From: an uncultured Candidatus Saccharibacteria bacterium
GTDB lineage: Bacteria; Patescibacteriota; Minisyncoccia; Phycocordibacterales; UBA9973
Assembly: GCA_964522195.1 (NCBI GenBank)
Contig: CAZFSV010000001.1
Location: 44,680 to 108,679 of the forward strand
Reading direction: 5' to 3'
DNA: 64,000 nt
Below the pieces are notes generated by a model. The model saw only the letters and a program-made list of their open reading frames with translations, ran no database searches and was not told where the DNA came from. Within the stretch, counting starts at the first letter, position 1. The number at the start of each line of letters is the position of its first letter. Shown in pieces: positions 7,402-25,111 of this stretch. Position numbers and translations under genes: made by a program.

Positions 7402-7776
7402 TTATCCTATTAATTTTATTATTTTTTCAGCTAATTCATCTAAAGTAAAATTAGATTTTATTAAAAATTCATTTGCTCCTAAAGTGTTTGCTTTTTTTAT
7501 GTCTTCATCATTAAATAAATTAGAAAAAATGATTATTGGAACCATAGAATATTTTTCATCTTCTCTAATTTGTTTTAAAATTTCAAAACCATTGGTACCG
7601 GGTAATAATAAATCTAAAAGAATTAAATCAATCTGATTTGATCCATCTTTAATAAACTTAAAAGCATTTTCGCTGTTTATTGCAGGTAAAATATTATAAC
7701 CTTTTTCGGTTAATTTTTTACTTTCCATGCTTTGTAGGAATTCATCGTCTTCTATTATTAATATCGTTTTAGTCAT
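7402..7776 (-). CDS. Single-domain response regulator (CheY-like receiver), tandem paralog
   Basis: 124 aa; first 15 residues identical to the neighbouring receiver (MTKTILIIEDDEFLQ); same receiver motifs. Confidence 0.75.
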   Translation of the reverse strand: MTKTILIIEDDEFLQSMESKKLTEKGYNILPAINSENAFKFIKDGSNQIDLILLDLLLPGTNGFEILKQIREDEKYSMVPIIIFSNLFNDEDIKKANTLGANEFLIKSNFTLDELAEKIIKLIG

Positions 7777-9621: not shown

Positions 9622-9746
9622 GTATAAATTATATCAGAGAAAATAATTTCTGGCGGTGTATGTGAGTTAAGTACCCACGCTATCAATGTTAATAAGGATA
9701 TTTTAGCATGTTTTTGACTAGGTCACTAAGGCAAGTGAGTCGGTCT

Positions 9747-10283
9747 TCATTTTTTAAAATCCCAGTTGTTTTCGTACTTTTCAGCTAACGGTGTTTTAAT
9801 TTTATACTTTTCTTTACTTACACCTAATCTAAAGTTTCTCATCTCGGTTATTTTAAACTTTTCCTTATTGTTTCTTTTTGTCTTTATCCATAATTCGCGC
9901 TCATCTTTAATATATTTAGCCACAACACTACTTGGCACAATATAAAATTTAAAATTTTCAGTTTTATTAGATATATTCACAAAGCAGTAAAACAAATCAG
10001 GATCTTTTATTGTTTCGTGTTTTTTATGCATTATCCAACCACTAACAGTTTTACCAAAAATTCTTGATTCAGATGTTTGATTTCGGTTATTTTTAAAGTT
10101 AGTTTTTACTTCTAATTTATACATCTTTTTTGTGAATGGATTTGAAACTAAGATGTCTACATTTTTTGTATTACCTAATGTCATATTTGCATCCAACCCT
10201 CGTAGTACAAGTTGTGAAAGCACGGCAAATTCTCCAGCCAGAGAAACAGAATTTCTATTTATTTTTTCTTTATTATTTTCCAT
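9747..10283 (-). CDS. Predicted PD-(D/E)xK nuclease (Hjc/restriction-endonuclease-like fold)
   Basis: N-terminal LAGEFAVLSQLVLRG helix followed by VDILV...YKLEVKT (D...ExK) core; 178 aa. Confidence 0.45.
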   Translation of the reverse strand: MENNKEKINRNSVSLAGEFAVLSQLVLRGLDANMTLGNTKNVDILVSNPFTKKMYKLEVKTNFKNNRNQTSESRIFGKTVSGWIMHKKHETIKDPDLFYCFVNISNKTENFKFYIVPSSVVAKYIKDERELWIKTKRNNKEKFKITEMRNFRLGVSKEKYKIKTPLAEKYENNWDFKK

Positions 10284-10360
10284 ATATAACTACATTTTAA
10301 CACTTTTTATAATAAGTTTAGACCATACCCACATAGACACAATAGACACCTCTTTATAGA

Positions 10361-11419
10361 CTAAGGAAATAATTCTAGATACTTTTCTGGACCCCATGCT
10401 TTCAGTAGTTTTTTGAAGATTTCAATATCTCTATCTTTCAGGGGTTGGTCGTTAAAACCACCATATTGGTTAAGGATGTTTAATTCTCTTTGGGTTTTAT
10501 TTGGATTAGCTTTCCATTCTTTTAATACCCTATAAATCTTTTCGGCTTCAATCTTGGTGTGTTCTTTTAGTTGTTCTTTGATTTGATTTACCTCAATAAG
10601 CATTTGGGCTCCGTTTGGAGTTTCGTATTTATGAAGAAGATTTTCATAAGCATATTTATCCATTTCTTTTGTAGCCACAGGAATTCTTCTTATGTATTTA
10701 CTACTACTGCCATTTGGTAGTAAAAATTCATACTGGCGATATTCGACACCTTCTTCATCTGTGTGAGATGCCCATTCTCTAGCAAAGCCGTTATCTATAT
10801 GATCTTTCATTGCTAGATTTAAGAACTTTTCTTTTCCTTTGGCATCAGAAGCTTCCCAACATTCACAAATTAATTGAGCTCTCATCCAGATAAAGCTCGA
10901 GTGAGCTTTGTTGTCCATTAATAATTCCCAAGCTTTTTTACTTAATTCTTTATCATCACTAATTATTGCCTGTTGAATCATTTTGTATTTATCTTCATAA
11001 GTCATAGCTGAAAACTTTCTGATTGTTTCAATTGCTTTTTCTCCTTCATCTCTAGTTTTCTTTACAAACCTTTCTATCTCAGCAAAAATTCTTTCATTCT
11101 TTTCTTTCTTTTGATCAATTTCAGCTTTTCTATAAAAAATAGTTCCTGTGTCATTAGCTAAATACATCAATGCATCTGGTTTGTAGTCCTTTATTTCTTG
11201 AGCGTAGTATTCACTACCAAAGAAGATGATAATAAATGGATTTATTTCTTCAATTTTAGATTTCCAATTGGTTGGAGTTTGGTTAGAGTAATATACATTT
11301 CCTAAATCATACTTGGAAATTAAATCCTTGTAATAACTATTATCTCTAAGTTCCTTAGCTTTTCTGTTCGCCATTTCAGTCAAAGGAACATATCCTATTA
11401 TTAAAGTATTTATTTCCAT
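10361..11419 (-). CDS. Hypothetical protein (352 aa), middle gene of nuclease cassette
   Basis: Long ORF tightly coupled (2-nt spacer) to upstream gene; no recognisable motif. Confidence 0.45.
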   Translation of the reverse strand: MEINTLIIGYVPLTEMANRKAKELRDNSYYKDLISKYDLGNVYYSNQTPTNWKSKIEEINPFIIIFFGSEYYAQEIKDYKPDALMYLANDTGTIFYRKAEIDQKKEKNERIFAEIERFVKKTRDEGEKAIETIRKFSAMTYEDKYKMIQQAIISDDKELSKKAWELLMDNKAHSSFIWMRAQLICECWEASDAKGKEKFLNLAMKDHIDNGFAREWASHTDEEGVEYRQYEFLLPNGSSSKYIRRIPVATKEMDKYAYENLLHKYETPNGAQMLIEVNQIKEQLKEHTKIEAEKIYRVLKEWKANPNKTQRELNILNQYGGFNDQPLKDRDIEIFKKLLKAWGPEKYLELFP

Positions 11420-11421
11420 AT

Positions 11422-11934
11422 TTATTTAATATCCCATTCAAACAAAATAAAGTTCTCTGGTAGTAAACCTTCTTTCAAAGATTCTTCAAGCCAGAGTATT
11501 TGTGTGTCTTGAATTTTATCTTTCTTTTTTCTTTTGAGTTCTATAAAAAGTATTTGACTATCTTTCCAAACAAGCACATCCCAACAGCCACCAGATTTCC
11601 CAGTTTTCTCTTTTATCTTATTTATCAAATCTTCTTTATCTTTAGGTATTTCTATTGGTTCAACAACTTTAGGTAAACCAATTCTGTATTTTCTTCTGTA
11701 TGAATCCACCCAAACACCGCTCCAACCATTTTCTTCAAAAATACGTAAAACAGCGAGCTCTGCAAAAAGAGGCTCGCTGTTATAATCAATCACGGCTTTA
11801 TTGCCATAAGTATAATCTATGGGTTTTCCTTTCCATTCGTTGAATTCAAAAAAGTATTTCTGAATTGGTATTTGTTTTTTATCTGACAATAAAAATATTT
11901 CATCATCAGTTTGATGTTTTTTAAGAAATTGCAT
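11422..11934 (-). CDS. Predicted VRR-NUC-like PD-(D/E)xK nuclease
   Basis: AELAVLRIFEENGW helix then CWDVLVW...ILFIELKRKK...QDTQILWLEE (D..ExK followed by conserved Q..W), pattern typical of VRR-NUC domains. Confidence 0.4.
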   Translation of the reverse strand: MQFLKKHQTDDEIFLLSDKKQIPIQKYFFEFNEWKGKPIDYTYGNKAVIDYNSEPLFAELAVLRIFEENGWSGVWVDSYRRKYRIGLPKVVEPIEIPKDKEDLINKIKEKTGKSGGCWDVLVWKDSQILFIELKRKKKDKIQDTQILWLEESLKEGLLPENFILFEWDIK

Positions 11935-11936
11935 TG

Positions 11937-12099
11937 CACTCTAGCGGGTTAGTGCAGGCTAGGAACTTTTGTGTATCAAAAGGCTCCCAGCCATTGCGAT
12001 AGACCGAAGTCTACCCGTATAAGTTTCCCTATACGACCCGCTAGAGTGACTCTGACTGGGAGTCCTTTGATCTCTAGCGGGAGATTTGCGACCATGCCT
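11937..12099. other. GC-rich structured repeat element (13-bp inverted repeats cactctagcgggt/acccgctagagtg plus third partial copy)
   Basis: Abrupt GC-rich block in AT-rich DNA. A perfect 13-bp inverted repeat at 11937-11949/12036-12048 encloses ~85 nt with sub-hairpins (tagac-UUCG-gtcta on minus strand, cgtata...tatacg). ctctagcggg recurs at 12071-12082. Confidence 0.4.
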
Positions 12100-12528
12100 C
12101 AAATAAATAAGGTTTAGGTCTTCTATTCAATTGTTAATGAAATTATACCTTATTTTCAAAGGTCCTGCATCTTAGCTTAATCCTTGAGATTTGTGTAGTC
12201 ATTAAAAATCCATCTGTGGATAACTTTTGATTTTTTATTTACACACCTTTTTGTATTAAAACTAGGTCATCTTTCTTAAAAGAAAAATCACAAAAATTCT
12301 ATTTACACTACTGACAGAATTTCTGTGATTTTTTGTTTGCAATAAAAAATATGTGTGTATAAAATACAAATATAACTAAATTGTGAGATTTTAATATCCC
12401 TAAACTGTTTGAGTAAGATCGGTCGATGAAAAGATCAAACTCGGAAGTGGGATATTTTTATTTCAACTTCACTTAATTGAGAACTAAACTGACTACCTAA
12501 ATTGAATTAAAAGCTAATTCAAAATTTT

Positions 12529-13851
12529 ATGAATAAAAATTTAAATATCGTTTATGTTCCAATTAAAAAACTCAAATTATCCGAATACAATCCTCGCAAA
12601 CAAAGCGAAGAGCAAGTAAAAGCTCTCACAGAAAGTATTAGTAGATTTGGTCTTGTCGATCCTGTCGTTTGTAATAGTGCCCCTCAAAGGATGAATGTCC
12701 TAATAGGAGGGCATTTCAGATTGAGGGTTGCTAAAGATCTCGGGTACACAGAAATGCCAGTAGTGTATGTAAATATCTCAGACATTGAAAAGGAAAAGGA
12801 ATTAAATATAAGATTAAATAAAAATGTTGGAGAGTTTGATTATGCTTTGCTTCAAGATTTCAACGAAGAATTCTTGGCAGGGGTAGGTTTTACCAGTGAA
12901 GAATTAGACACTATCTTTGACATAGACCCCAATCCAGAACAATTCAATCTCAAGGAAGAGCTTGAGAAGATGGATATAAAAGTGAAGGTTCAGAAAGGAG
13001 ATATTTATGAGATAGATGGTTCATACCTTATGTGTGGAGATTCAACCATAGAAGCAGATATGCTCAAATTAATGGAAGGTGCTCAAGCAGATATGGTGTG
13101 CACTGACCCGCCATATATTCTTGACTATCTAAAAGGCAAAACCAAACAAAAAGACGGTGTAACTGTCGGCTTTGGTGCCAAGAAGAACAGAAGATATCTT
13201 GAAACCGAATCTTTGCCTGATAACTTTACTGATTTGTGGATGGCGAATGTGCATAAGGTTCAGAAACCTGATTTTTCAATCATCATATTTGAAAATCCAA
13301 AGAACTTACGAATCATTTGGAATGCTCTCGAGAAGTACTGGAAATATCGTAACACGATTGTGTGGCATGTGCCAAACAGAATGCAAGGTTTTTCTGCAAA
13401 GATGAAATTCTTTAACAAGCACGATATAGCATTAGTCGGTAGCACAGATAGCGTGACCATCAACCTCGAGCCAGAAGAAGAGATATTTCAGAATGAATAT
13501 GAGAATGCTCTCTTTGCTTCATCTGGCAAACCACATTGGGAATCTTATGGTAAAGGTAAAAAGATATGCCCAACGGACTTTATCGAACACATCGCCGCTG
13601 ATAAAAAATCCTCAGGACAAGATATTATCTTTGGAACAAAACCACTTGAACTTTTGATTCCATATATCAAGGTTCTAACTACACGAGGTCAATTAGTACT
13701 TGAGCCATTTGGAGGCTCTGGATCTACTCTTATAGCTTCTTTAAAGCTAGGTCGAAAATGCAGAATAATGGAAAAGTCTCCTGTCTATACAGAAGTGATT
13801 ATCAAAAGATGGGAAAAGCACACAGGCAAAAAGGTTACCAAAATTAATTAA
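12529..13851 (+). CDS. ParB-like nuclease domain fused to beta-class N6A/N4C DNA methyltransferase (orphan MTase, phage/plasmid type)
   Basis: N-terminal ParB/Srx-like region (LIGGHFRLRVAKDLG); MTase motif IV DPPY (MVCTDPPYIL) preceding motif I FxGxG (LEPFGGSGSTLIA) = beta permutation. Confidence 0.8.
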   Translation: MNKNLNIVYVPIKKLKLSEYNPRKQSEEQVKALTESISRFGLVDPVVCNSAPQRMNVLIGGHFRLRVAKDLGYTEMPVVYVNISDIEKEKELNIRLNKNVGEFDYALLQDFNEEFLAGVGFTSEELDTIFDIDPNPEQFNLKEELEKMDIKVKVQKGDIYEIDGSYLMCGDSTIEADMLKLMEGAQADMVCTDPPYILDYLKGKTKQKDGVTVGFGAKKNRRYLETESLPDNFTDLWMANVHKVQKPDFSIIIFENPKNLRIIWNALEKYWKYRNTIVWHVPNRMQGFSAKMKFFNKHDIALVGSTDSVTINLEPEEEIFQNEYENALFASSGKPHWESYGKGKKICPTDFIEHIAADKKSSGQDIIFGTKPLELLIPYIKVLTTRGQLVLEPFGGSGSTLIASLKLGRKCRIMEKSPVYTEVIIKRWEKHTGKKVTKIN

Positions 13852-13859
13852 TCATCCAT

Positions 13860-14543
13860 ATGGCTAAAGACAAAACATCAAGACATGAATTGAAACGAAA
13901 CAGAGAACTAAAAGGAAATCTTGAATTAGCCAAGGGTAGTATATCCAGAGAGAGTAAATCTTTCTCTAGGTATGACCCTGATGAATTCATTACTAAAGGT
14001 AAACCAAACATACCCAAAGACATTCCAGAAAAAGAAAGAAAAAGATTAGAAAAACTTGCAGAAGAAACTGAGAAGAATAAAAAAGCTTTGGTATCACAAT
14101 TGCGAAAAACTCCCATAGCTCAGATAGCTTGTGAAAAGACTGGAATAGGCAGATCTACTTATTACAAATGGCGAGCAAATGACTTCATTTTTGCTCGTGT
14201 CGCTGATAAAGCGATGGATGCAGGTAGATTCTTCATCAATGATATGGCTGAATCAAAACTAATCAAACTCATTCAAGATAGTAATATGCAAGCCATTAGT
14301 TTATGGCTAAGACATAACCACCCTAGATACACATCTTTAGGTAGGATTATTAAAGACTTTGAAATTCTAACTGAAACTCTCTCAACAGAAGAGAAGAATG
14401 TTGCAGAACAAATGCTCTCAGAACTGGTGATGAATAAAGCAAAGTTAAACTATTCGAGCAAAGATTTGAAGGAGTATTACAACAAAGAAGAGAGTAAGAA
14501 TCCTGAAGATGAAAAAAGAATGCGGGGGTTTGATGAGGATTAA
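13860..14543 (+). CDS. HTH-domain protein (terminase-small-subunit/transposase-HTH-like), unknown function
   Basis: Basic N-terminus, putative HTH IACEKTGIGRSTYYKWRAND; 9 nt downstream of ParB-MTase. Confidence 0.4.
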   Translation: MAKDKTSRHELKRNRELKGNLELAKGSISRESKSFSRYDPDEFITKGKPNIPKDIPEKERKRLEKLAEETEKNKKALVSQLRKTPIAQIACEKTGIGRSTYYKWRANDFIFARVADKAMDAGRFFINDMAESKLIKLIQDSNMQAISLWLRHNHPRYTSLGRIIKDFEILTETLSTEEKNVAEQMLSELVMNKAKLNYSSKDLKEYYNKEESKNPEDEKRMRGFDED

Positions 14544-14552
14544 TGGTTAACA

Positions 14553-14580
14553 AAAATACCAGCTACGGCTGGTATTTTTT
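14553..14580. terminator. Bidirectional rho-independent terminator between convergent genes
   Basis: aaaaataccagc-tacg-gctggtatttttt perfect hairpin flanked by A-run/T-run. Confidence 0.75.
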
Positions 14581-14595
14581 ATGATGGTTTAGGTT

Positions 14596-17500
14596 TTACC
14601 TTCGATATTTAAGTTTACGGTTGTCAAATGCCGGTAATGTTCCTTCAAGTATATCGACAACGTACTTATTGATTTTTGGATTTTCAATAGAACCCGAATA
14701 AAAATCGAAGTCGTTCTTATTCTTTTTGTCTATGTGTACGTGGATTATCTGTTCCGCGTCTGCCACAACTGCAAGATTTGGGTTGTGGGTGACCATAATA
14801 ATTTGACGACGCTTCTTTGCTTTTTTAAGAAATGTCACAAGGATTTCGTATACACTTTTGTTATCGAGGTTATCTTCCGGTTGGTCTATGACAAGTGGTA
14901 TATCCCGACGATCAAGCATTAGATAGAAGATAAGCAGAAGACCACCCCTTTCGCCCGGCGACAATTCACTAAGGTCTTTCTCATCGACTTTCAGGTCATA
15001 CTTAGTCTCCAAGTAATCGAATCCAAAAATATAATCATATAGATCGACGGGTTCCTTGCCTTGCTTCATCTGCTTGAACACACCACGAGCCTTATTTTCG
15101 TTAGCAGGTAGACCAACTCTTTTATCAGTATCGATATTGGCCGTCACGGAGTCGAGGAAAGACATTACCATTTTCTCATTCTGCCAATTGGTTACTTCCT
15201 CAACAATTCTTTTAAGCACACTTTTACCATCCTCTGTTCCGTAAAAACTACCTTTAACCGCCTGATTAACAAATCTAAAGAATTCATCGAAAAATGTTTT
15301 GTCGAAGCGAAGACTCGCTTCTATAGAGATGTCGTAGTCGCCTAACTCTTCGCTATATTTTTCAATTTCTCCGTCGATTGATTTTTTCACCGAGTCGTAG
15401 AAGGTAGCCAACGTCACCTTCTTGGCGAAGATTTCCTTGCTGACTCTTGTCCGTTCTTCCTTGGCAGTGGTCAGTTCCGCAGGGTAAGTTGATGTAATCG
15501 CAACAAGTTCCTTCGTAAGCCAGTTAAGCGTATCCGCGACTGGGGTTGTATCATCGCCAACCAATTCTTTCAGTTGATTTTCCCACTTTTCCTTATCTTT
15601 CAGATAGGCTTGGTATTCCTGATTCGGTTTATCAAGCCGGTCAACGATTTCTTTTCTCTGTTTAGACAACAGCGCCTGTTTGCAGACTAGGCTTTTTCCC
15701 AACGCAAGTTTCTTGTCAGCATCATTCAGACCTAATGTCTCAATATCGGCTTCAGTTTTGAGGAGTTCATTTATCTCGGCGAGTCGGTCCTCATTGGTTT
15801 TGACAAAATCATCGATTTTTTTGGAATCAAACGATACTGTGACAATGTCATCGAATTTTATGTCTGCAGCCGTAAGTTGCTCTCGGTATTTAGTCTTTAA
15901 ACCCGTAATACCCATGACTTGGCGAGAGATTGCCAGTTTTATTTGTCCAAAGTCCTGAACTTTCTTTGCAACGGACGCCTGCTCCGTCTTAATTGCAGTG
16001 ATTGATGTGGCTAACGTGGTCAATTCAGTTTCTATGGGCGTAATCTCAGACACACCTCCCGTCGCAACCTCAGTGGCTTGTGCTGGTTTTGGGGCGTCTT
16101 TTGGTTTCAGCTTGTTATGGGTATCTACCTCCTCTTCCTTGATCCGCTTCTTTTCCTCAATCGACTTCTTGTAATCAGGCGCGAGTTTTCGTTCAGCGGC
16201 AACAACCTTGTTGTTTGCCTCATGCAATGAGTCCTTAGCTAATTTTATATCCTCCTCTATCTGACTTGAGAGATAGGTGATGAGTTCCTCTAAGGTCGTC
16301 TTTTCAAATCGGTCCTTTTCTTCAACGTACCCAAAAATGACCTCATTTAATTTTCCCCTGAACTCATCATCTTCTATATTCGCACAAATCTTCTCAAGAT
16401 ATTTTTGGGGTAGGTACTCGACCTTTTCAGAAAGGGTTTTGTCGACTTCTGCATCCAGAAGGATTCCGTCCGGCTCTCCCGCATGCCAATGTAATTCACC
16501 AGAAAAATTCGAAGCGCACCGCCCTTTGAGAAATTTGTCTTTATTCAAGAAGGAGAATAATTCTTCGGATCGACCGTTCGTACCGTCATACTTCTGGTTA
16601 TGACTATTGCCAAACAACCCCACTATGTCCGTGACAGCACTTTTACCACTTCCTTTGTTACCAATGATGGCAACAAGTTCGGGATTCAGGTCGATCTTTT
16701 CGTCTTTAAACCATGTGCCGTGTTTTCCGTCGTACCCTTCAATCTGGTCAATATGTAGAGTTTTTATGTACTTAGTCTGATTGGTACGCACGCGATCCAA
16801 AATGCCAGGCTCATCTCCTATGAATATTCGTTCATCAGGTTCATACGTGATGTACTTGAGACCCTCAAACGTTAGGTCCGCCTTAACCCAGGTGATGTCT
16901 CTTTCTATCACGGTCAGATTTTCGGCGTCCGTTTTTATGATCCTTTTGCCAAGCGCATTTTCAAGATCATTAAAAGAGTGAGCGTCACTACCGCATGCGA
17001 CAGGCTTGGGTACCGAACCTTCGTAACGCTCACCGAGAAAGAAATCCTTATCATCAGCACGTCCGAAAAATACTGGGCAAACATCGTCTATAGTTTTCGC
17101 GTACTCCGTGTGTCTGCCCTCATGTTGCGGCGGGCGGATTCCACCGTAACCATTTGCTACACCAAAAACTAGAAAAACATCGCGATTTCCGAATGTCTTC
17201 TTTAGTGAGTTAAGAATTGCATCACTAGTAACAATTGCCTTATCATATCCGATGCGCGCCAAGTCAGTTTGTACGCATTTAGATTTTGAACCGTCTACAT
17301 TAACATTTCTTAGCTCAATACCGCTCAGAAATCTTTCGATTTCCTCTTTTGTTGCCTCATCTGAGAAAACAATGTGAATATTTATGTGATCGTTCTCTTT
17401 ATTTTTATCTTCAAGTCTAAATTCAATATTTGGAAAAAATATTTTCTTTGAATCTGGATATTTTGTCTTAAATTTTTCAATAAAAGTGAAGTAACCATCC

Positions 17501-17688
17501 GCAGAGAAATAATCGGTGATACCAAAGGCATATACATCAGATTCTTCCAACTTTCTACAATATTCATCCCACACGTCTTTACCAGAAGAAACAGCGTACT
17601 GGTCATTTAGTTTTGTGGTTGGTGGATGAATATGAAGATCCCACTTTCTCCATACTGAACCTATTCTAAACTCGTCTTTCTGAACCAT
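14596..17688 (-). CDS. PHP-domain phosphoesterase fused to SMC/RecN-like ABC ATPase with central coiled-coil (PplA-like defence protein)
   Basis: N-terminal PHP motifs (WDLHIHPP HxH, ...ACGSDAHS). Walker A AIIGNKGSGKS. ~450-aa coiled-coil/low-complexity spacer. ABC signature LSPGERGG, Walker B VIDQPEDNLD, H-loop IIMVTHNP. 2-nt spacer to upstream res gene. Confidence 0.7.
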   Translation of the reverse strand: MVQKDEFRIGSVWRKWDLHIHPPTTKLNDQYAVSSGKDVWDEYCRKLEESDVYAFGITDYFSADGYFTFIEKFKTKYPDSKKIFFPNIEFRLEDKNKENDHINIHIVFSDEATKEEIERFLSGIELRNVNVDGSKSKCVQTDLARIGYDKAIVTSDAILNSLKKTFGNRDVFLVFGVANGYGGIRPPQHEGRHTEYAKTIDDVCPVFFGRADDKDFFLGERYEGSVPKPVACGSDAHSFNDLENALGKRIIKTDAENLTVIERDITWVKADLTFEGLKYITYEPDERIFIGDEPGILDRVRTNQTKYIKTLHIDQIEGYDGKHGTWFKDEKIDLNPELVAIIGNKGSGKSAVTDIVGLFGNSHNQKYDGTNGRSEELFSFLNKDKFLKGRCASNFSGELHWHAGEPDGILLDAEVDKTLSEKVEYLPQKYLEKICANIEDDEFRGKLNEVIFGYVEEKDRFEKTTLEELITYLSSQIEEDIKLAKDSLHEANNKVVAAERKLAPDYKKSIEEKKRIKEEEVDTHNKLKPKDAPKPAQATEVATGGVSEITPIETELTTLATSITAIKTEQASVAKKVQDFGQIKLAISRQVMGITGLKTKYREQLTAADIKFDDIVTVSFDSKKIDDFVKTNEDRLAEINELLKTEADIETLGLNDADKKLALGKSLVCKQALLSKQRKEIVDRLDKPNQEYQAYLKDKEKWENQLKELVGDDTTPVADTLNWLTKELVAITSTYPAELTTAKEERTRVSKEIFAKKVTLATFYDSVKKSIDGEIEKYSEELGDYDISIEASLRFDKTFFDEFFRFVNQAVKGSFYGTEDGKSVLKRIVEEVTNWQNEKMVMSFLDSVTANIDTDKRVGLPANENKARGVFKQMKQGKEPVDLYDYIFGFDYLETKYDLKVDEKDLSELSPGERGGLLLIFYLMLDRRDIPLVIDQPEDNLDNKSVYEILVTFLKKAKKRRQIIMVTHNPNLAVVADAEQIIHVHIDKKNKNDFDFYSGSIENPKINKYVVDILEGTLPAFDNRKLKYRR

Positions 17689-17690
17689 GA

Positions 17691-19961
17691 TTATTTCAAT
17701 TCAAAAAATTCCCATCCTTTCATCGACGAGTCGAAAGAATATTTTGCGTTTTTGTTTATCTTCCATCCATTTGGCCCATCTTGGACAGCTATACCACCGG
17801 CAAAACCTTTTTTGCCCTTTAGCCATGCTTGAAGTGCCTCGGCTTTGTACTTTGTATCGTTGCTCTCCGCAGTAATTCCGCCTTTAGTATCAACAATGTA
17901 GAGAGTGTCTTTGGTCTGTACAATCCAGTCGGGATAGAAAAGTTTTTCCTTGTTTTCATCCTGATTGTAGTAAGAGATAGAGAAGTATTCGCTTCCCGAG
18001 TCGCCGTTTTTGTACCACCACACTACGCCCCTAGATGATTCGAGGAATTTTACAAACGCTTCCTCGTTAGTTCGTCCTGCATAATCTTTTTCTATCCAAA
18101 ACGGCTCCATAGCTGACTTCTTAACAGAAAGTGCTTCGTATTGATCAGTGAAGAACAAAGCTTCGCGTGGGATTTCAATATTCTCAACGCGCTTTGCGCG
18201 TGCAGATTTTTTGTTTACTTCTTGTTCACGAACAGGTCGATATTCAAGAAGTGCATCACCAATTACCGGAGCAAGTGCACCAGATGGACTCAAGAGATCG
18301 TTTACGATGATTTTATAGGCATCAATACGCTCCGCCTTAAGCTTATTCATTAGCCAAATATTTAAAGCTGTTTTCAGCTTTCCCCACGAACGCTCAGGAG
18401 CAAATTTTCTGTTCTCGTCTGTCTGTTTTGCAATAATTTTGAAGCAGAGGAGGTTATAGAGTCGCTCGAGATCGTGTCGAGACATTTCCTGCTCATGACT
18501 TCCTCCTTCTGCAAGAAGCTCCTTAGTAAAGTTGTCGTAATCATCAATTTCTACCCCAACGATCAAGCCGTTTGTGACTTTCGGCTTCAAATCCATTTTC
18601 TTTACATCTAGTTTTTTATCCGCAACTTTCTTGAATGTTTCTTGGAATGTATCGCCAAGGTCGTTATAGTCGGCACGAGTCATAAAGACCGATTCAAGCT
18701 TGATCGGCTTTATGTTTTTCTTGCGATAGCTTCCGTTTATTGCAGGGCGGTTTTCTGTCTTTGATTTTGCATACTCGGCAAGTACCTCGTTTCGCTTGTA
18801 GTTTGTATAGAGATAACCCAAATTAAGTTCAGGGTGTGCGAAATGCACGCCAAACGGCATTCGCAAGATGCGCCCTACAGTCTGAATTGCAAAAGTAGGA
18901 TTTTTGATTTCGCGGAACATCACAAGCACGCCCGCGCGCGGACAGTCCCAGCCAGTCGCGGCGGCTTGCTTGAAAAGCAAGAACGAAACCGGAGAATTAC
19001 TCTTTTCCAAGTCTTCAAGATTTTCCTTTTCTTTAGAAAGCCATACTGCAATTTCGTTTCCTTTTACACCCTTACGCTTTAGATATTCCAAAACAATTTG
19101 CTGTTTAGTTGTACCACCTGTTTCTTTTGTTGCTTGGTCGTCATTTGGTAGCTGTATCAGTACAAGCGGATTTACTTCTGCTTTTATTTCTTTATAGAGA
19201 GAAACGAGCTCCTCGCGCTTTGAATACGCAAGCTCTAAAAGCATTTCATCTTGATCAAGTTTCTTGATTGCTTTCTGACCCAAATCTTCCTCAGTTTGAA
19301 AAACAATTTTTTCCTTAATGAGTCCCGCTTCCACAACTTCAGCTCGCTTTACCTCGATATATCCGGCAACATCAGCACGGGTAGGGATGTATTTCGGCGT
19401 AGCCGACACGCGAATAGTGATTTTGGGTTTAACAACCCCATTTATAACTTCGTCCGCAAGTTCTGTATCAGAGCCAATATGCTCCTCGTCAATAATCACG
19501 ACAATTTTTCTTCCGTCCTCGTGGGTTTCGGCGATAAAATTATCAAAAGTTAGTCCTTGTTCATTATCTCGGCGAAGCTTTCGGCTATCTTTCGTCTTAC
19601 CTTTGATTTTTTGCCAGTTTATGAAAAAGACATTGTTCTTCTTTAGCTTTCCGCGCGAAAGATCGTTAAGATCAATCAAATCAAGCTCGGATGCTCCTCC
19701 ATAGTATTCAAAAAGTTTCTTTTTACTTTGTTCGTATGATTCTTCGCTAAACGAGAACCAAACAAATGCCACATCATTTCCCTCAAAACGAGGATCGCTC
19801 ACAATATCGCGTAAAAATTGCGCAAGCATGATTGTCTTACCCGAGCCAGTAGGCGATTTAAAGACGACGGGTGTATTTTCGTTCGGTAATTTCCACAGCG
19901 AAAGAAACTCATTTTTGAGATTCGATACTGCGGTTTCTTGAAATGGTTTTAGTGCAAACAT
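17691..19961 (-). CDS. res: Type III restriction enzyme Res subunit (SF2 helicase + PD-(D/E)xK endonuclease)
   Basis: Helicase motifs I FKSPTGSGKT and II VIIDEEH; C-terminal endonuclease motif YPDWIVQTKDTLYIVDTKGG (PD...DxK). Confidence 0.75.
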   Translation of the reverse strand: MFALKPFQETAVSNLKNEFLSLWKLPNENTPVVFKSPTGSGKTIMLAQFLRDIVSDPRFEGNDVAFVWFSFSEESYEQSKKKLFEYYGGASELDLIDLNDLSRGKLKKNNVFFINWQKIKGKTKDSRKLRRDNEQGLTFDNFIAETHEDGRKIVVIIDEEHIGSDTELADEVINGVVKPKITIRVSATPKYIPTRADVAGYIEVKRAEVVEAGLIKEKIVFQTEEDLGQKAIKKLDQDEMLLELAYSKREELVSLYKEIKAEVNPLVLIQLPNDDQATKETGGTTKQQIVLEYLKRKGVKGNEIAVWLSKEKENLEDLEKSNSPVSFLLFKQAAATGWDCPRAGVLVMFREIKNPTFAIQTVGRILRMPFGVHFAHPELNLGYLYTNYKRNEVLAEYAKSKTENRPAINGSYRKKNIKPIKLESVFMTRADYNDLGDTFQETFKKVADKKLDVKKMDLKPKVTNGLIVGVEIDDYDNFTKELLAEGGSHEQEMSRHDLERLYNLLCFKIIAKQTDENRKFAPERSWGKLKTALNIWLMNKLKAERIDAYKIIVNDLLSPSGALAPVIGDALLEYRPVREQEVNKKSARAKRVENIEIPREALFFTDQYEALSVKKSAMEPFWIEKDYAGRTNEEAFVKFLESSRGVVWWYKNGDSGSEYFSISYYNQDENKEKLFYPDWIVQTKDTLYIVDTKGGITAESNDTKYKAEALQAWLKGKKGFAGGIAVQDGPNGWKINKNAKYSFDSSMKGWEFFELK

Positions 19962-19965
19962 AGTT

Positions 19966-21651
19966 TTATAGGCGATTTATTTCTTTGTATACCTCAAGGA
20001 TCGGCTCGGGAATATCCTCGACTCGGATATGTGCGGATGAATATTCACCCTTGTATTCGTTCTTGCCCCAACTGAAAATATACAGAGCGACAGGTAAACT
20101 TTTCTTTTCAAGTTTTTCAATCAATTCTGCAAGCTTTGATTTGTCCTCCTTGAAATAGATTGCTGTCATTCGTCCGCGACCTTCAAAAATCTGCCACCAT
20201 TCATTTTTTTCAACTTCATTGAGAGTATCTTCACGGACAGCAATCATTTCTCCGGCTTGATAGGTAACACGAATTTTTGCTTCGTCAGGTATCTTCTGAA
20301 GATGTTCAATCTCAACAATATCTGTTTTGTAGTATGCAAGATTTCCTCCAAGCCCTTCAATTTTTTCACCAGTTTTTAAATTTTTATAGCCACTCATTAC
20401 TCGTTTTACGCGTTCGTAAGTCACTTCCTTGCAAATATTGTTTTCATTGTTAGTGCAAAGAATAAATCTACGATGACCACCGTCCTCTTTATTTATCTCG
20501 AGTACAGCATGACCAGTAGTACCAGATCCAGCAAAAAAGTCTACAACAAGAGCGTTGCGCCTATTTTTTGTTGTGGCAATTAAACACTCTTTTGTGTTGT
20601 AAAGTGATTTCGGAAATGGGAATTTTGTATCGATTATTTGATTTACCAAGCTTGAACCATAAGTATTAGAGTTATGTTTTGAATCCACCCATACTGTTTT
20701 GTATCTGTATTGACTCTTATATCTGTTGATTACAAGTTCACCTTTATTTTCTTCACACTTTAGTTCTCCCCAAATATCCTCAACTGTTTGTCTTGCAAAT
20801 CGCCACTTTCTTTCCACACCATTTCCATCAATGGGGTAAATTTCAACATTCCCATCTTTTCTTTTCTCGTTTGCGGATTTCGGATGTATCTCATCTTGAA
20901 GAACATCGCCAAATCCAATAATTTTCTTTGTTTTAGGATCAACAATAATTGAATAGAAACAATTTCGTGCTGTGTTCCTCTTAGATTCATCGCCACCCCA
21001 GTCTCTTAATGGGGTGGGTTTAACATCTTCTCTTTCTACGCGAGAAATATATTCCTTTCCTTTCGGAAAAATGAAATATGCATATTCGTGGGTATATGAG
21101 AAATTATCTCCTTGAATTCCACCTGGATTATGAATGATGGTTACGCAGACCTTTTCATGGGTAGGAAAAATATCCTCGAGCAAGAGACCTAGTGTCTCTT
21201 GCTCGTTGTGATCAATAGCACAAATTAAAATTCCATCTTGATTAAGAAGTTCCCTTGCGAGCTTCAATCTGTGACTCATAAAAGACAACCATTTGCTATG
21301 ACGATATTCGTCTTCCTTGTCTACATAGTCGTTGTTGTATCTCCAGTTTTTCGCTCCTGTGTTGTAGGGTGGATCAATGTAAATAACATCAACCTTCTTT
21401 TTATGAGTATAAACAAGAGCTGAAAGTGCATGATAGTTATCACCCTCAATCAGAAGATTATAGATTTCATTATCTGACTTCTTAACCTTAAGGTTTTTTA
21501 TTTGTCTCAATACAGGTATATTTTTTTGACCATCTACAACGACATCTTCTGGTTTTTCCTCCCAGATTAAGCCGTACTTGCGATCTTTTTTCAGACGTCT
21601 CAGTTCTGATTTCAAATCCGCTATCTCTTTTTGTAAATCTTTTTCAGACAT
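19966..21651 (-). CDS. mod: Type III R-M Mod subunit, N6-adenine DNA methyltransferase (beta class)
   Basis: Motif IV IYIDPPYNTG upstream of motif I VVDFFAGSGTTGHA; central variable TRD; 4 nt upstream of res. Confidence 0.8.
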   Translation of the reverse strand: MSEKDLQKEIADLKSELRRLKKDRKYGLIWEEKPEDVVVDGQKNIPVLRQIKNLKVKKSDNEIYNLLIEGDNYHALSALVYTHKKKVDVIYIDPPYNTGAKNWRYNNDYVDKEDEYRHSKWLSFMSHRLKLARELLNQDGILICAIDHNEQETLGLLLEDIFPTHEKVCVTIIHNPGGIQGDNFSYTHEYAYFIFPKGKEYISRVEREDVKPTPLRDWGGDESKRNTARNCFYSIIVDPKTKKIIGFGDVLQDEIHPKSANEKRKDGNVEIYPIDGNGVERKWRFARQTVEDIWGELKCEENKGELVINRYKSQYRYKTVWVDSKHNSNTYGSSLVNQIIDTKFPFPKSLYNTKECLIATTKNRRNALVVDFFAGSGTTGHAVLEINKEDGGHRRFILCTNNENNICKEVTYERVKRVMSGYKNLKTGEKIEGLGGNLAYYKTDIVEIEHLQKIPDEAKIRVTYQAGEMIAVREDTLNEVEKNEWWQIFEGRGRMTAIYFKEDKSKLAELIEKLEKKSLPVALYIFSWGKNEYKGEYSSAHIRVEDIPEPILEVYKEINRL

Positions 21652-21653
21652 AA

Positions 21654-21980
21654 TTATTTTCTTTTTACTATTTCTTCTCCTAAAGGACCTTCAATAAGTT
21701 TAACAGTTTCCTTTATAAACTGTTCCCATGTATACACTTCTTTGTACCACAATAAAACAACGTCGGTTCGATGCTTTAGAATTCTCAGAAATTTTTGCCA
21801 TGTAAATCCTACCGGTTTTAGTTCATCTTTCCACGCTTCCCATAAATATTTAGGGAGCTGATTTCCGTACCACACATTGAGATTTTCCCATTTAATAGAA
21901 GTATCTTTTGTGGTCATTTTTTCAATTGAACGAATCCAATCTTTTACATGCTGGGGTTCTTTTGGGGTAAAAAGTTTCAT
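21654..21980 (-). CDS. Hypothetical Trp-rich small protein, first gene of mod-res-PHP/ATPase operon
   Basis: 108-aa ORF ending 2 nt before mod start; no recognisable motif. Confidence 0.4.
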   Translation of the reverse strand: MKLFTPKEPQHVKDWIRSIEKMTTKDTSIKWENLNVWYGNQLPKYLWEAWKDELKPVGFTWQKFLRILKHRTDVVLLWYKEVYTWEQFIKETVKLIEGPLGEEIVKRK

Positions 21981-22088
21981 ATCCTAAGTATATGGTATAT
22001 TAAAAGAAAAGTAAAGTAATAAGATTACCAACATCTAGCAAATGAGACGCTCTGGACTCCTTGAGGGATATGCGTCATTCATTAGGGT

Positions 22089-23366
22089 ATGGAAACAGAA
22101 AAAGTAAAATATTGCTTATATGCAAGAAAATCAACTGAATCAGAAGAAAGACAGGTCCTTTCTATAGATTCACAGATTAAAGAGATGCTTCAATTAGCAG
22201 ATAGAGAGGGGTTAGAGATTGTAACGATGAAGCGTGAAAGCCACAGCGCCAAGGAAACAGGTCAAAGACCAGTCTTTAACGAAATAATAGAAGAATTAAG
22301 GGCTGGTAAGTTTAATGGAATACTCACATGGGCACCTGACCGTATTAGTAGAAATGCGGGAGATTTGGGAAAGATAGTGGACCTGATGGATGCAGGAAAA
22401 CTGAAAGAAATACGAACCTTTGGGCAAAAGTTTTCAAACAATCCGAATGAGAAGTTTCTTCTGATGATTTTAGGAAGTCAGGCAAAACTTGAGAATGATA
22501 ATAGGGGTATCAATGTAAAGCGAGGATTACGAACAAGGGTTGAGATGGGTCTCTGGCCAGGAGTGGCACCGCTCGGATATCTTAATCAAAGAGATTTAGA
22601 TAAAAAGTGTCAGCTAGTAGTAGACACACTTCGTGCTCCAATAGTGAAAAAGATATTTGAAAAAGTAGCTTATGAAAAAATGAGTGGTAGGAAAATATAT
22701 AACTGGCTCAGGTTTGAAGCGAATTTCTATACTCGAGGCAATAAACCCTTAACTCTCGCAGGAGTATATAGAATTCTAGAGAGTCCTTTTTATTATGGAA
22801 TGTTTGAATATCCGAAAGATAGCAGTAATTGGTATCAAGGTAAGCATAATCCATTAATTACAAAAGAATTATTTGAACAAGCTCAGGCACAACTGAAGAG
22901 AGATAATATACAAAGAGAGAATAAAGAATTCGCATTTACCAAACTATTTACTTGCGGATATTGTGAAAGTGGAATATCTGCAGAAGAGAAATGGAAACAA
23001 CTAAAAGATGGTACACATACAAAATACATATACTATTCGTGCAGTAGATCCCGAGATAGAAATTGTAAAAATAAATATATTCGTGAAGAGGAACTTATTA
23101 CTGAAATGTTGAATATATTAGATAAAGTAAATATAAATGAGCTTGGTATGAGGCAGAAGCTAGAAGACGAAATTACAAGATTTAATATATTCCAAAGGTC
23201 AGTACTTGGTGCGACAGATAAAATTAAAAACAACACAGAAGCAGATATACGAAACTATGCTAAGTATATTCTAAAAGAAGGGATGGTAAGTGAGAAAAGA
23301 GAATTGTTAGCCAACCTCAGAAGCAGGATTGTATATAAGGATAAGAAGCTAACACTAATAGAATAA
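22089..23366 (+). CDS. Large serine recombinase (resolvase/integrase family)
   Basis: N-terminal catalytic domain YARKSTESEERQ...SIDSQ, recombinase domain, Cys-rich zinc ribbon CGYCESG...YSCSRSRDRNC, C-terminal coiled coil. Confidence 0.85.
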   Translation: METEKVKYCLYARKSTESEERQVLSIDSQIKEMLQLADREGLEIVTMKRESHSAKETGQRPVFNEIIEELRAGKFNGILTWAPDRISRNAGDLGKIVDLMDAGKLKEIRTFGQKFSNNPNEKFLLMILGSQAKLENDNRGINVKRGLRTRVEMGLWPGVAPLGYLNQRDLDKKCQLVVDTLRAPIVKKIFEKVAYEKMSGRKIYNWLRFEANFYTRGNKPLTLAGVYRILESPFYYGMFEYPKDSSNWYQGKHNPLITKELFEQAQAQLKRDNIQRENKEFAFTKLFTCGYCESGISAEEKWKQLKDGTHTKYIYYSCSRSRDRNCKNKYIREEELITEMLNILDKVNINELGMRQKLEDEITRFNIFQRSVLGATDKIKNNTEADIRNYAKYILKEGMVSEKRELLANLRSRIVYKDKKLTLIE

Positions 23367-23373
23367 TTTATTT

Positions 23374-24762
23374 TTACTCATATTGAGAATGAATATTTTT
23401 AACATAGTCATCTGCAATTTGTAGAATTTCACTAAAAGTGAGTATTTCAATATTATGAAGTGAGTTACGAAGTTTCGTAAAGTCTCTCTTGAGACTTTTT
23501 TCTTTTACTTTATTTAATTTACTTTTAGTTAATTTGTGTTCAGAAGAAATAATAATTATTCCTCTTGGATGATAAAGGTTCTCTTCCTCGGTCATGTTAG
23601 TAATCTTATTTTCGTCAGAATTATTTTCAAATCGTTTCTGTACAATAGCATCCATGTAATTCATTGTTTGAATTACTGCTCTACTTAACTCAGAAGAAAA
23701 GCTAAAGTTTTTGTGAGAAGAATCCCAAGTAACAGCATTCTTAAGATGTGTTTTGATTTCGATAATATCAAGACCATTATAATGATTAATACCTATAAAA
23801 TCAGGATACTTTTTGTCACCATCAATATCTTTAAATTCAATTTTTGGATATATCTTTTTATATGAAAATACTAAATACAATAGATACTTTTCAAAGTATT
23901 TTTGCCAAAGATTTTCTAACTGTTTTATATCTGAAGTATCATCTGTGATTTTTGCGATAATTTTTTTAGCTTTCTCGGTGCTCATATCCGTAGAGCCAAG
24001 ATTAAGAATTTCTTTACCAACAGCAATAATGTCTTTGAGCTTTTCTTTTATAAAATACTCATCTAAAGATCTTAAAAAGTCTGGAGTAAATACCTCGTCG
24101 CGTATCAATTTTTCTGTAAAATACTCAAGATTCTTCACATCCTCTGTATCTAAAAAGTTATCGTAGTCTTTCTTTTTATTCTTATTTTTAAGATTGAAAC
24201 GCTCAATCATAAAAGAAAAATCTCCTTTGCCTATAGTTGTAGTTTCTTTTGGTGCTTTATTTGTGTACTTAAGTTTTAATTTATTTATTAAAAAAGTCTC
24301 GATGCGATCTCTACTAGATTTACCTTTTTTAAAAACATCATATGAATCACTTAAGATATCTATTAATACTGACTCTGGTATTTGTATTGTTTTTTCATTA
24401 GCTTTTCTTAAAATCTTTTTACCAGAGTTTAAGATTTTTATCTTAGAAAGAGTATCATCAATACCGAGAATATCTTTTATGTATTGAAACCATGGAATAT
24501 TATAGTCACTACCGTAACGGGTTCGTAGTACATTACTTATGTCTACCTTGTCTGAAATAAGTAATGACTGTTTATTATTTATTTTATCGTAACTATTTTG
24601 CTGTCGATTATAATAATGAAATTCTATGGTTGTGTCTTTTTTATTAAATATCACAACATCACCAGAAGGACAGGATATTTTAGAATCCTCAAAAACCATC
24701 CCTGGCCAGCTTAGGGATTGAAAAAACTCAACAATCTTTTCTTTTTGTGTTTTTTCTTCCAT
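23374..24762 (-). CDS. RecB-family PD-(D/E)xK nuclease-like protein (possibly Shedu/DUF4263-like)
   Basis: C-terminal KYPDFIGIN...GLDIIEIKT (PD, ExK) followed by QTMNY (QxxxY motif of RecB-family nucleases); 462 aa with long unrecognised N-terminal region. Confidence 0.4.
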   Translation of the reverse strand: MEEKTQKEKIVEFFQSLSWPGMVFEDSKISCPSGDVVIFNKKDTTIEFHYYNRQQNSYDKINNKQSLLISDKVDISNVLRTRYGSDYNIPWFQYIKDILGIDDTLSKIKILNSGKKILRKANEKTIQIPESVLIDILSDSYDVFKKGKSSRDRIETFLINKLKLKYTNKAPKETTTIGKGDFSFMIERFNLKNKNKKKDYDNFLDTEDVKNLEYFTEKLIRDEVFTPDFLRSLDEYFIKEKLKDIIAVGKEILNLGSTDMSTEKAKKIIAKITDDTSDIKQLENLWQKYFEKYLLYLVFSYKKIYPKIEFKDIDGDKKYPDFIGINHYNGLDIIEIKTHLKNAVTWDSSHKNFSFSSELSRAVIQTMNYMDAIVQKRFENNSDENKITNMTEEENLYHPRGIIIISSEHKLTKSKLNKVKEKSLKRDFTKLRNSLHNIEILTFSEILQIADDYVKNIHSQYE

Positions 24763-24776
24763 GCTTATATTTTACC

Positions 24777-24806
24777 AAAAAAAAGCAGATTAATCTGCTG
24801 TTTTTT
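24777..24806. terminator. Bidirectional rho-independent terminator
   Basis: aaaaaaaagcagat-taa-tctgctgtttttt perfect hairpin. Confidence 0.7.
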
Positions 24807-24865
24807 GGTACGTGAGTCACACCGCTTGCACGGGCAAGTGGGTTGACTCCGATACTAAATTGTGT

Positions 24866-24955
24866 TGGCGGAGAGAGCGAGATTCGAACTCGCGGTCCTG
24901 TTTAAGGGACGACGGTTTAGTAAACCGTTGATTTAAACCACTCATCCATCTCTCC
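24866..24955 (-). tRNA. Type II (long variable arm) tRNA, Ser-like, apparent anticodon ACU
   Basis: GGAGAGATGGATGAGTGGTTTAAATCAACGGTTTACTAAACCGTCGTCCCTTAAACAGGACCGCGAGTTCGAATCTCGCTCTCTCCGCCA. Acceptor 7 bp, T-arm GCGAG/TTCGAAT/CTCGC, G73, encoded CCA, 3-bp D-stem typical of tRNA-Ser. Anticodon loop TTACTAA reads A34-C35-U36. Confidence 0.65.
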
Positions 24956-25021
24956 ATGAAACACAATTAATAATATAGCATAAAATGGAAAAATAGTAAT
25001 AATATGCTAAAGTATTTCTAT

Positions 25022-25111
25022 GGAGCCGTGGGAGAGTGGTCTAATCTACCTCTTTGCTAAAGAGGCAGGCTGTAAAAGGCCTCGAGGGTTCGAATCCCTC
25101 CGGCTCCGCCA
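25022..25111 (+). tRNA. tRNA-Ser(GCU)
   Basis: GGAGCCGTGGGAGAGTGG...CCTCT-TTGCTAA-AGAGG anticodon arm (GCU), long variable arm, T-arm AGGGTTCGAATCCCT, G73, CCA encoded. Confidence 0.85.

Follow-up and report, generated by a model that had tools for sequence, protein, structure and literature searches.

tRNA genes are the textbook target of tyrosine integrases. Large serine recombinases (LSRs) of the phiC31/Bxb1/A118 type, which combine a Resolvase domain, a Recombinase domain and a zinc ribbon, target protein-coding genes; their attachment (att) sites are short and share few bases, and the integrase gene is located close to one end. We have analysed a 64,000-nt stretch of DNA from a member of the Patescibacteria (hereafter the window, in whose coordinates all positions are given), where a block of 15,215 bp at 9651-24865, called the island below, abuts the 3' end of a tRNA-Ser(ACT) gene and carries an LSR as its sole recombinase. 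Judging from sequence comparison, the island is most probably a single integrative mobile element. It is like the phiC31/Bxb1/A118-type elements in the domains of its enzyme, in its predicted att sites, short and with few bases in common, and in the position of the integrase gene near one end, but its target is a tRNA 3' end.

The island differs further from the serine-integrase prophages in that its putative P and B half-sites are unusually alike (18 of 30 positions; in the related element L088, 74% over 47 nt) and in that it has no virion genes. With Islander-type tDNA islands it shares the site at a tRNA 3' end, an intact tRNA, a tRNA-like distal border, an onboard recombinase and cargo, but the recombinase is an LSR, the identity between the two borders is limited to 6 nt and the distal sequence appears to be a half-site borne by the element. 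The staphylococcal cassette chromosome (SCC) elements (SCCmec; recombinases CcrAB/CcrC) and the Enterococcus cassette chromosome resemble it in being mobilised by an LSR, in sitting at the 3' end of a conserved housekeeping gene, in their modular cargo and in forming tandem or composite arrays with degenerate repeats; unlike the SCC elements, the island targets a tRNA gene and not rlmH, has a phage packaging backbone, resides in a patescibacterial host and carries an LSR other than Ccr. Satellites of the phage-inducible chromosomal island (PICI) type and the tycheposons of Prochlorococcus are, as the island is, small and tRNA-linked, with a terminase subunit gene, defence or adaptive cargo and no virion genes. 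Set against the definition of PICI-like elements, the island has an LSR, a TerS-like helix-turn-helix (HTH) protein, no virion genes and a size of 15.2 kb, the range being about 5-20 kb. It departs from them in that no replication module or primase was recognised in it, in that most members of its family encode both the large and the small terminase subunit (TerL and TerS), and in that the ParB-methyltransferase and the LOOT RNA of this family have not been described for those elements. In function, the SCC cassettes and the PICI-like satellites come closest to the island. It has been stated that serine integrases do not use tRNA genes (PMC4383910). Since, however, 27 of 937 tycheposon-type elements use an LSR (bioRxiv 10.1101/2020.12.28.424599), the arrangement of an LSR at a tRNA gene is unusual but not unprecedented.

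Borders of the island

A first-pass annotation of the window had proposed an island reaching from 9651 to the 3' end of a tRNA-Ser-like gene. This extent is correct: conserved termini lie at both coordinates, with an uncertainty of no more than a few bases at either border. The sequences that define them, and the recombinase, are the following.

9622-9650, no strand: host flank, B' side of the putative former attB; reaches up to the epimerase start codon
9651-9656, no strand: distal copy of TGGCGG (CCGCCA in tRNA sense); identity block, with the crossover predicted within it or at its edge
9657-9746, no strand: distal terminal module; putative P half-site ATGTGAGTTAAGTACCCA resembling the tRNA 3' end, block TAAGGnTnTTTAG and motif AGGCAAGTGAGTC at 9728-9743
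22089-23366, plus: LSR, 425 aa, putative element integrase; Resolvase, Recombinase and Zn_ribbon_recom domains; phrog_95 integrase, E 2.6e-64
24808-24865, no strand: tRNA-proximal terminal module, putative P' half-site; dyad GAGTCA..GCTTGCACGGGCAAGT..TGACTC and motif GGCAAGTGGGTTGACTCCGATA
24866-24955, minus: tRNA-Ser(ACT), integration target; ARAGORN, Rfam tRNA 57.4 bits; B half-site at roughly 24866-24895

The link to a tRNA-Ser gene was confirmed by ARAGORN and Rfam; the gene is intact and its 3' end points towards the island. TGGCGG, about 6 nt, is the sole sequence common to both junctions, and apart from AT-rich chance pairs no long direct repeats were found within the window. Related elements were collected by a profile scan with seven LSRs, which gave 67 IMG/VR loci; about 66 were analysed, duplicate views of one contig being excluded (loci within and outside this set carry L numbers). 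In 18 of these about 66 loci the LSR is followed downstream by a tRNA gene (for Ser, Gln, Asn, Asp, Glu or Trp), and in 18 of 18 its 3' end is directed towards the LSR.

Both termini recur in related elements. At the distal border a module of about 95 nt, counted from TGGCGG, is kept in L097, L169 and L165 (98.9% nucleotide identity in the last) beside unrelated neighbour genes. The far end of the L097 element is 77% identical to window 9640-9708 and shows TGGCGG-NNN followed by a perfect copy of the 18-mer ATGTGAGTTAAGTACCCA. The similarity to all three ends exactly at TGGCGG, and the host flank at 9622-9650 has zero similarity to them; a sequence GAAATTRTT beside CCGCCA is common to this flank and to the host-side flank of L098. 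An exact search of viral contigs for the 18-mer also returned L099, a match that was put down to chance as it lies inside an open reading frame (ORF) and its surroundings are dissimilar. On the tRNA side, the 58-nt proximal module is kept in L097 (about 86% identical), L166, L168, L169 and L171, despite the different cargo that adjoins it. The Logan contig ERR4450734_20452 (17,004 nt, present in 5 samples, 92-93% identical to the window) starts with GGCGGTGTATGTGAG, at window 9652, and ends with …AAATTGTCTTGGCGGAG, at window 24873, i.e. exactly at the distal core and 8 nt into the tRNA. Since it ends at both borders, it spans the element from att site to att site.

By its flanking malic-enzyme gene, the window belongs to the Patescibacteria, among Paceibacterota/Nomurabacteria-like metagenome-assembled genomes. 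Relatives without the island, a comparison that the annotation had suggested, were available in L004 and L053. These are distant relatives (malic enzyme 72-83% identical) that keep the flanks of the window and lack the block. In L004, the closest (83%), the whole 15-kb block is absent and the order is TspO, tRNA-Ser(GCT), tRNA-Ser(ACT), one 382-aa ORF, epimerase, histidine kinase, response regulator, RecG and TatD; its tRNA is the same as that of the window through …CTCTCTCCGC and diverges beyond. In L053 a copper-resistance cluster is found where the island would sit. One could read such different contents, present at the same place without a recombinase, as the mark of a hotspot of variation, situated between the two tRNA genes and the epimerase gene, into which homologous recombination brings genes piece by piece; the resemblance of 9651-9680 to the tRNA would then be due to chance. 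The similarity of that sequence to the plus-strand tRNA 3' end amounts to 18 of 30 positions, TGGCGG plus 12 of the following 24 (the annotation, which quoted the sequence as it stands, had counted about 13 of 24). In a scan of the whole window this is the top non-tRNA score, but ten sites score 17, just one step below, so that taken alone it is weak. The outcome is different if the test is restricted to the 125-nt intergenic region between the epimerase gene and the 178-aa gene, chosen because synteny independently marks the border there: a score of 18 was reached by 0 of 2516 window tiles and by 12 of 5000 shuffles (~0.002). The terminal modules are moreover kept in elements at other loci and in other hosts, an independent contig is bounded by both borders, and the 18 family members at tRNA 3' ends have a fixed orientation, all of which is at odds with piecemeal filling; we regard the hotspot as very improbable. 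The proposal that 9651-9680 marks the border was thus right, the sequence being kept at the junctions of L097, L169 and L165.

The distal sequence and the recombinase

What the distal sequence stands for is a separate question. The annotation had seen in it a duplication of the host tRNA 3' end, as left by site-specific integration. Insertion at tDNA by a tyrosine integrase is the commonest origin of such islands (PMC4383910), and it would account both for the position beside a tRNA 3' end and for the tRNA-like far border, if the duplicated tRNA end had since decayed to 18 of 30 positions. Yet among the 13 island ORFs no tyrosine recombinase was detected with Pfam, PADLOC, PHROG or NCBIfam, the sole recombinase being the LSR. 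Decay to 60% identity is also inconsistent with the intact genes of the island and the existence of a 93%-identical sister element. Above all, the distal sequence does not stem from the host: L097, L169 and L165, which lie at other tRNA-Ser genes, have it in nearly identical form, and it matches these copies far better than its own tRNA. An insertion by a tyrosine integrase is therefore hardly credible. Because the distal sequence is closer to its counterparts in other elements than to the tRNA next door, this comparison shows it to be borne by the element, probably as an attP half-site, and not a displaced host fragment.

The LSR is full-length, and the motif Y11-A-R-K-S15, including the catalytic residues R13 and S15, is invariant in the LSR alignment. 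Its best NCBIfam match is CcrB, with 125.7 bits against a cut-off of 900; by this profile score it is not a Ccr recombinase (CcrA, CcrB or CcrC). Homologues number more than 8000 at E<1e-50 in a database of 5.8 billion proteins, with more than 120 clusters at least 83% identical, and the names of the named clusters are all from Patescibacteria.

Attachment sites and proposed integration

The P arm GAGTTAAGTACCCACG and the B arm of the tRNA GAGATTCGAACTCRCG share a motif (GAGTTAAGTACCC in P, GAGATTCGAACTC in B), as would be expected if attP and attB are both recognised by the same subunits of the recombinase. The tRNA-Ser(ACT) and tRNA-Ser(TGA) genes at which related LSR elements lie have TGGCGGAG-N5-GAGATTCGAACTC in common. 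On the element side, 18 family members carry a GACC(C)-type motif at a distance of 21-23 nt from the tRNA end; its inverse, TGGGT, occurs in the P arm of the window, 22 nt away from the CCA end. The TGGGT of the P arm and the ACCCA of the P' arm are thus placed roughly symmetrically about the CCA end, and the 6-nt block is shared by both junctions. The reconstructed attP would therefore be roughly a dyad, TGGGT-N44-ACCCA, centred near the CCA end.

We propose that the island's own LSR inserted the element right at the 3' terminus of the tRNA-Ser(ACT) gene. In the circular form of the element, the proximal module (24808-24865) would be linked by the core TGGCGG to the distal module (9657-9746) to form attP, with the predicted junction …AAATTGTGT-TGGCGG-TGTATGTGAGTTAAGTACCC… (also written …GACTCCGATACTAAATTGTGT-TGGCGG-TGTATGTGAGTTAAGTACCCACGC…). 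The target attB would be the tRNA 3' end together with the flank upstream of the epimerase gene, which predicts an empty site …AATAATTTC-TGGCGG-AGAGAGCGAGATTCGAAC… (also written …GAGAAAATAATTTC-TGGCGG-AGAGAGCGAGATTCGAACTCGCGG…). The P half-site would mimic the T-arm and the 3' strand of the acceptor stem of tRNA-Ser, since the same subunits must bind both attP and attB. Strand exchange would occur inside or at the edge of the 6-bp CCGCCA block, and the expected outcome is an intact tRNA at one end and a tRNA-like P arm at the other.

Two relatives carry junctions that can be compared with this scheme. L088, which lies at a tRNA-Asn gene, has a 47-nt terminal direct repeat, 74% identical, which consists of the 3' end of tRNA-Asn and adjoining flank. 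L169 has, at 480-531, a P'-like arm contiguous with TGCGG and a P arm, an attP-like joint as expected of tandem elements. Tandem or composite elements were seen in L169, L097 (two LSRs), L104, L106/L107 and L116, and several contigs contain two or three LSR genes.

The predicted empty site was also searched for in metagenomes. The sole return was L098, a distant relative, and no same-species empty site was obtained. L098 was rejected as an empty site, since its 26-nt perfect window-type tRNA end lies beside a histidine kinase gene, separate from its own tRNA. This copy of the tRNA-Ser(ACT) 3' end, at 7657-7682 and with the same flank AATTTC, is 194 nt from an intact tRNA-Ser(ACT) gene (7877-7965) with a differing acceptor stem, and it looks like the relic of an earlier event at the site.

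A direct repeat of the AGGCAAGTGRGTYGAC type is present in both terminal modules, at 9728-9743 and 24831-24848, the first copy about 78 nt away from the distal core and the second some 20-35 nt away from the proximal one. It is nearly invariant in related elements and may be an accessory-protein or arm-type site.

Backbone and cargo

Between its two termini the island carries the following genes besides the LSR.

9747-10283, minus: 178-aa protein, function unassigned; two PHROGs of unknown function
10361-11419, minus: 352-aa protein, partner of VRR-NUC; 75 homologues, all without a Pfam domain
11422-11934, minus: VRR-NUC-domain nuclease, 170 aa; PF08774, 24.1 bits, just over the cut-off
11998-12120, minus: LOOT RNA (RF03000); 76.6 bits against a gathering threshold of 46.4, model positions 1-121
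12529-13851, plus: ParB-N / N6_N4 DNA methyltransferase fusion, backbone; Pfam, phrog_498; in 55 of 66 family loci
13860-14543, plus: TerS-like HTH protein, backbone; PF13022, terminase-small PHROGs with E 1.5e-5; in 46 of 66 loci
14596-17688, minus: TrlF-family AAA-like ATPase, Ppl-related, slot 1; NF045780 651 bits, PADLOC Ppl 55 bits; GC 0.415
17691-19961, minus: Type III Res, slot 1; ResIII and Helicase_C, PADLOC REase_III 63.5 bits
19966-21651, minus: Type III Mod, slot 1; PADLOC MTase_III 246 bits
21654-21980, minus: 108-aa protein, first gene of the leftward cargo operon; kept in L168
23374-24762, minus: Shedu SduA, slot 2; PF14082 (DUF4263) 66.6 bits against a cut-off of 27, PADLOC SduA 48 bits

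This list agrees with the genes of the first-pass annotation except for two names: its RecB-like nuclease is Shedu SduA, and its PHP-ATPase is a TrlF-family AAA-like ATPase. The defence content that it suggested is borne out by Type III restriction-modification (R-M), TrlF and Shedu. According to the arrangement we propose, the ParB-methyltransferase, the TerS-like HTH protein and the LSR (with TerL in most relatives) would form a backbone, and cargo would occupy slots between and beside these genes.

The Mod and Res genes of slot 1 are contiguous on the minus strand, as in a Type III R-M system. The same slot holds Type III R-M in L125, where Res is 70% identical, and in L107. The 108-aa protein encoded next to them had no family match in Pfam, PADLOC, PHROG or NCBIfam. 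Slot 2, occupied by Shedu in the window, contains a 1250-aa gene in L168, a 151-aa gene in L166, a helicase in L097 and an ABC transporter in L171, and this cargo is invariably bounded by the stop codon of the LSR gene and the P' module. In the left slot, the VRR-NUC gene and its 352-aa partner also adjoin each other in L086, where the VRR-NUC homologue is 63% identical. The AlphaFold model of the partner (pLDDT 90.7, a confidence score) shows an N-terminal four-strand alpha/beta domain, a helical bundle and a beta-meander, and gave no significant Foldseek match in PDB or BFVD. The 178-aa protein has no match in Pfam, PADLOC or NCBIfam; its gene is precisely deleted in the 93%-identical element L165, which makes it, by this comparison, dispensable cargo. 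As a whole, the LOOT-led cassette of VRR-NUC, 352-aa and 178-aa genes probably has a nucleolytic function.

The composition of the island is uneven. Its GC content is 0.363, against 0.29-0.30 in the flanks, and the elevated GC and tetranucleotide deviation that the annotation expected are indeed found at about 12-23 kb (GC up to 0.48, tetranucleotide z up to 6.1), but the ends are host-like, with 0.303 for the VRR-NUC cassette and 0.279 for Shedu. From this it might be argued that the LSR element extends only from about 12.1 to 23.4 kb, and that the VRR-NUC cassette (9.7-12.1 kb) and Shedu (23.4-24.8 kb) belong to the host or to other, older islets, the more so as tandem or nested elements, with two LSRs or attP-like junctions, do occur in the family (L097, L104, L106/L107, L169). 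The termini speak against such a composite, since the conserved sequences at 9657-9746 and 24808-24865 lie outside both end modules. Moreover, VRR-NUC and the 352-aa gene are kept between the same termini in L165 and L168; in L086 (order: 352-aa gene, VRR-NUC, LOOT, ParB-methyltransferase, HTH, LSR, tRNA-Gln) they have, with LOOT, the same position relative to the ParB-methyltransferase gene; and slot 2 is always enclosed by the LSR and the P' module. Host-like GC is, finally, what one would expect of cargo that has long resided in low-GC Patescibacteria. A composite is thus improbable, and the idea of more than one insertion, also raised by the annotation, is better replaced by that of one element whose backbone is conserved and whose cargo slots can exchange their contents, the termini being outside all cargo.

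The wider family and the LOOT RNA

The family backbone was derived by clustering 733 ORFs. The LSR was found in 66 loci, the ParB-methyltransferase in 55, TerL in 48 and the TerS-like HTH protein in 46; TerL here is a protein of about 500 aa, identified as the large terminase subunit by phrog_38 (E 5e-81). The family order is ParB-methyltransferase, TerS, TerL, cargo, LSR, cargo, tRNA; in L088 it reads ParB-methyltransferase, HTH, LOOT, LSR and, further on, tRNA-Asn. No capsid, portal, tail, other virion structural or lysis genes were found in the window element or in the family loci, including L088 (12.2 kb) and L169 (11.9 kb), which are complete. With its phage packaging module and no virion genes, the family is probably satellite-like. 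Its cargo consists mostly of Type I and Type III R-M, reverse transcriptases, helicases and uncharacterised genes. Reverse-transcriptase genes (phrog_1423, RVT_1) are recurrent, as in L119 (4423-5481), L171 (4191-5459) and 5-6 other loci.

The LOOT RNA of the window lies as a leader 63 nt upstream of the VRR-NUC cassette and is divergent from the ParB-methyltransferase gene. With a covariance model built from six copies, LOOT was found in 18 of the about 66 family loci, always within the element (among others at L086 3454-3581, L088 5232-5345, L097 15174-15286 and L107 9710-9832). In 15 of these 18 it is at most 90 nt upstream of, or slightly overlaps, a cargo gene on the same strand; the genes so preceded include VRR-NUC, an OB-fold protein, a bPH_2 protein and Type III Mod, and LOOT is usually divergent from the ParB-methyltransferase or the LSR gene. 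This placement suggests that LOOT is a leader or regulator of the leftward cargo operons. The 48-nt hairpin in the centre of LOOT (CCCGCTAGAG…CTCTAGCGGG) is implied to occur, as the same 48 nt, elsewhere in the SRR13355620-22 samples.

In the literature searched, nothing specific was found on the LOOT RNA, on TrlF or on serine-recombinase elements of the Candidate Phyla Radiation (CPR). Taken together, and at somewhat less than even chance, we may be dealing with an abundant family of patescibacterial elements, not found described in that literature, in which a satellite-like packaging module (ParB-methyltransferase, TerS, TerL) without virion genes would be combined with an LSR clade specialised on tRNA 3' ends through a tRNA-like attP half-site, the members acting as exchangeable carriers of defence genes and LOOT as leader or regulator. 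If this holds generally, the family could provide a natural set of serine integrases with a predictable, highly conserved attB, of use in integrase prospecting, and a route for defence systems among the small CPR genomes, whose mobile elements are poorly known. It would also give the orphan LOOT RNA a genomic context and testable hypotheses, and might be the first satellite-like element family in the phylum.

Mobility of the window copy

Elements with LSRs 89-98% identical to that of the island differ from it in cargo and are found at tRNA-Ser(ACT) or tRNA-Ser(TGA) genes. L166 (LSR 98% identical) lies at a tRNA-Ser(TGA) gene in a different host locus (RuvX/CutA/Ddl) and carries Type I R-M. In L171 (LSR 91%) the proximal module abuts tRNA-Ser(TGA), likewise in a host locus different from that of the window (RuvX…), with other cargo, and L085/L097, with an LSR 89% identical, are beside tRNA-Ser(TGA) as well. 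L169 (LSR 90%), on a 746-kb contig with a tRNA-Ser(ACT) gene, shares the proximal module, and the P-arm 18-mer is found there at a distance of 11.9 kb upstream of the tRNA. In contig ERR4450734_20452 the 178-aa gene is cleanly deleted and a 1250-aa ORF stands instead of Shedu. Thus, in backbones that are 92-98% related, Type I R-M replaces Type III R-M and TrlF, and other genes replace Shedu. An element with a 98%-identical LSR at another tRNA-Ser and a 93% sister with swapped cargo argue for recent mobility of a lineage without TerL.

Several observations weigh against a mobile element inserted by its own LSR, or at least against parts of that proposal. TerL is absent from the window copy, where Type III R-M, TrlF and the 108-aa gene take its place, and a copy without TerL may no longer transfer. 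No recombination directionality factor was recognised in the island, and neither an excised circle nor an empty site of the same strain was seen. The family loci come from IMG/VR, whose 'viral' labels are weak evidence of viral nature. As to the crossover, L097 has CCGCAG at its tRNA junction and CCGCCA at the distal one, and this difference at the CA/AG positions keeps the junctions from singling out one dinucleotide; estimates of the dyad centre made by eye fall 0-4 nt from the TGGCGG block. L004 is not a naive empty site either: besides its different ORF it carries, after tRNA-Ser(ACT), the sequence CCGCAGAGACAAT (13103-13125), which agrees with the beginning of the P' arm in elements of the L097/L171 type (CCGCCAAGACAATTT) and is probably the scar of a former element. 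Breaks in the Logan contigs of SRR13355620-22 were considered as a possible polymorphism of the island and rejected; they bracket the whole tRNA (24867-24958) and the 48-nt LOOT hairpin (12035-12082), which are sequences shared with other genomes and not att junctions, unlike the ends of ERR4450734_20452.

Some of these points would fit an element of the same origin whose copy in the window is today a fixed remnant without mobility, left by the decay of a satellite or prophage and kept only for its useful defence cargo. The missing TerL, present in 48 of 66 relatives, the replication genes and directionality factor that were not recognised and the circular junction that was not observed all point that way. 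Against it, the LSR and both att modules are intact, a sister without TerL (92-93%) occurs in other samples with exchanged cargo, and another tRNA-Ser gene is occupied by an element whose LSR is 98% identical. We consider a remnant unlikely, though a serious alternative, and prefer an element whose copy without TerL may still be mobile.

The tRNA-Ser pair at the integration site

The target gene is accompanied by a second one, tRNA-Ser(GCT), at 25022-25111 on the plus strand and thus divergent from tRNA-Ser(ACT); it was likewise confirmed by both ARAGORN and Rfam. The pair is kept in at least 10 Paceibacterota/Nomurabacteria loci. The anticodon ACT implies A34, and a tRNA with A34 other than tRNA-Arg(ACG) is unusual in bacteria. 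In the host genes the codon AGT is about three times as frequent as AGC.

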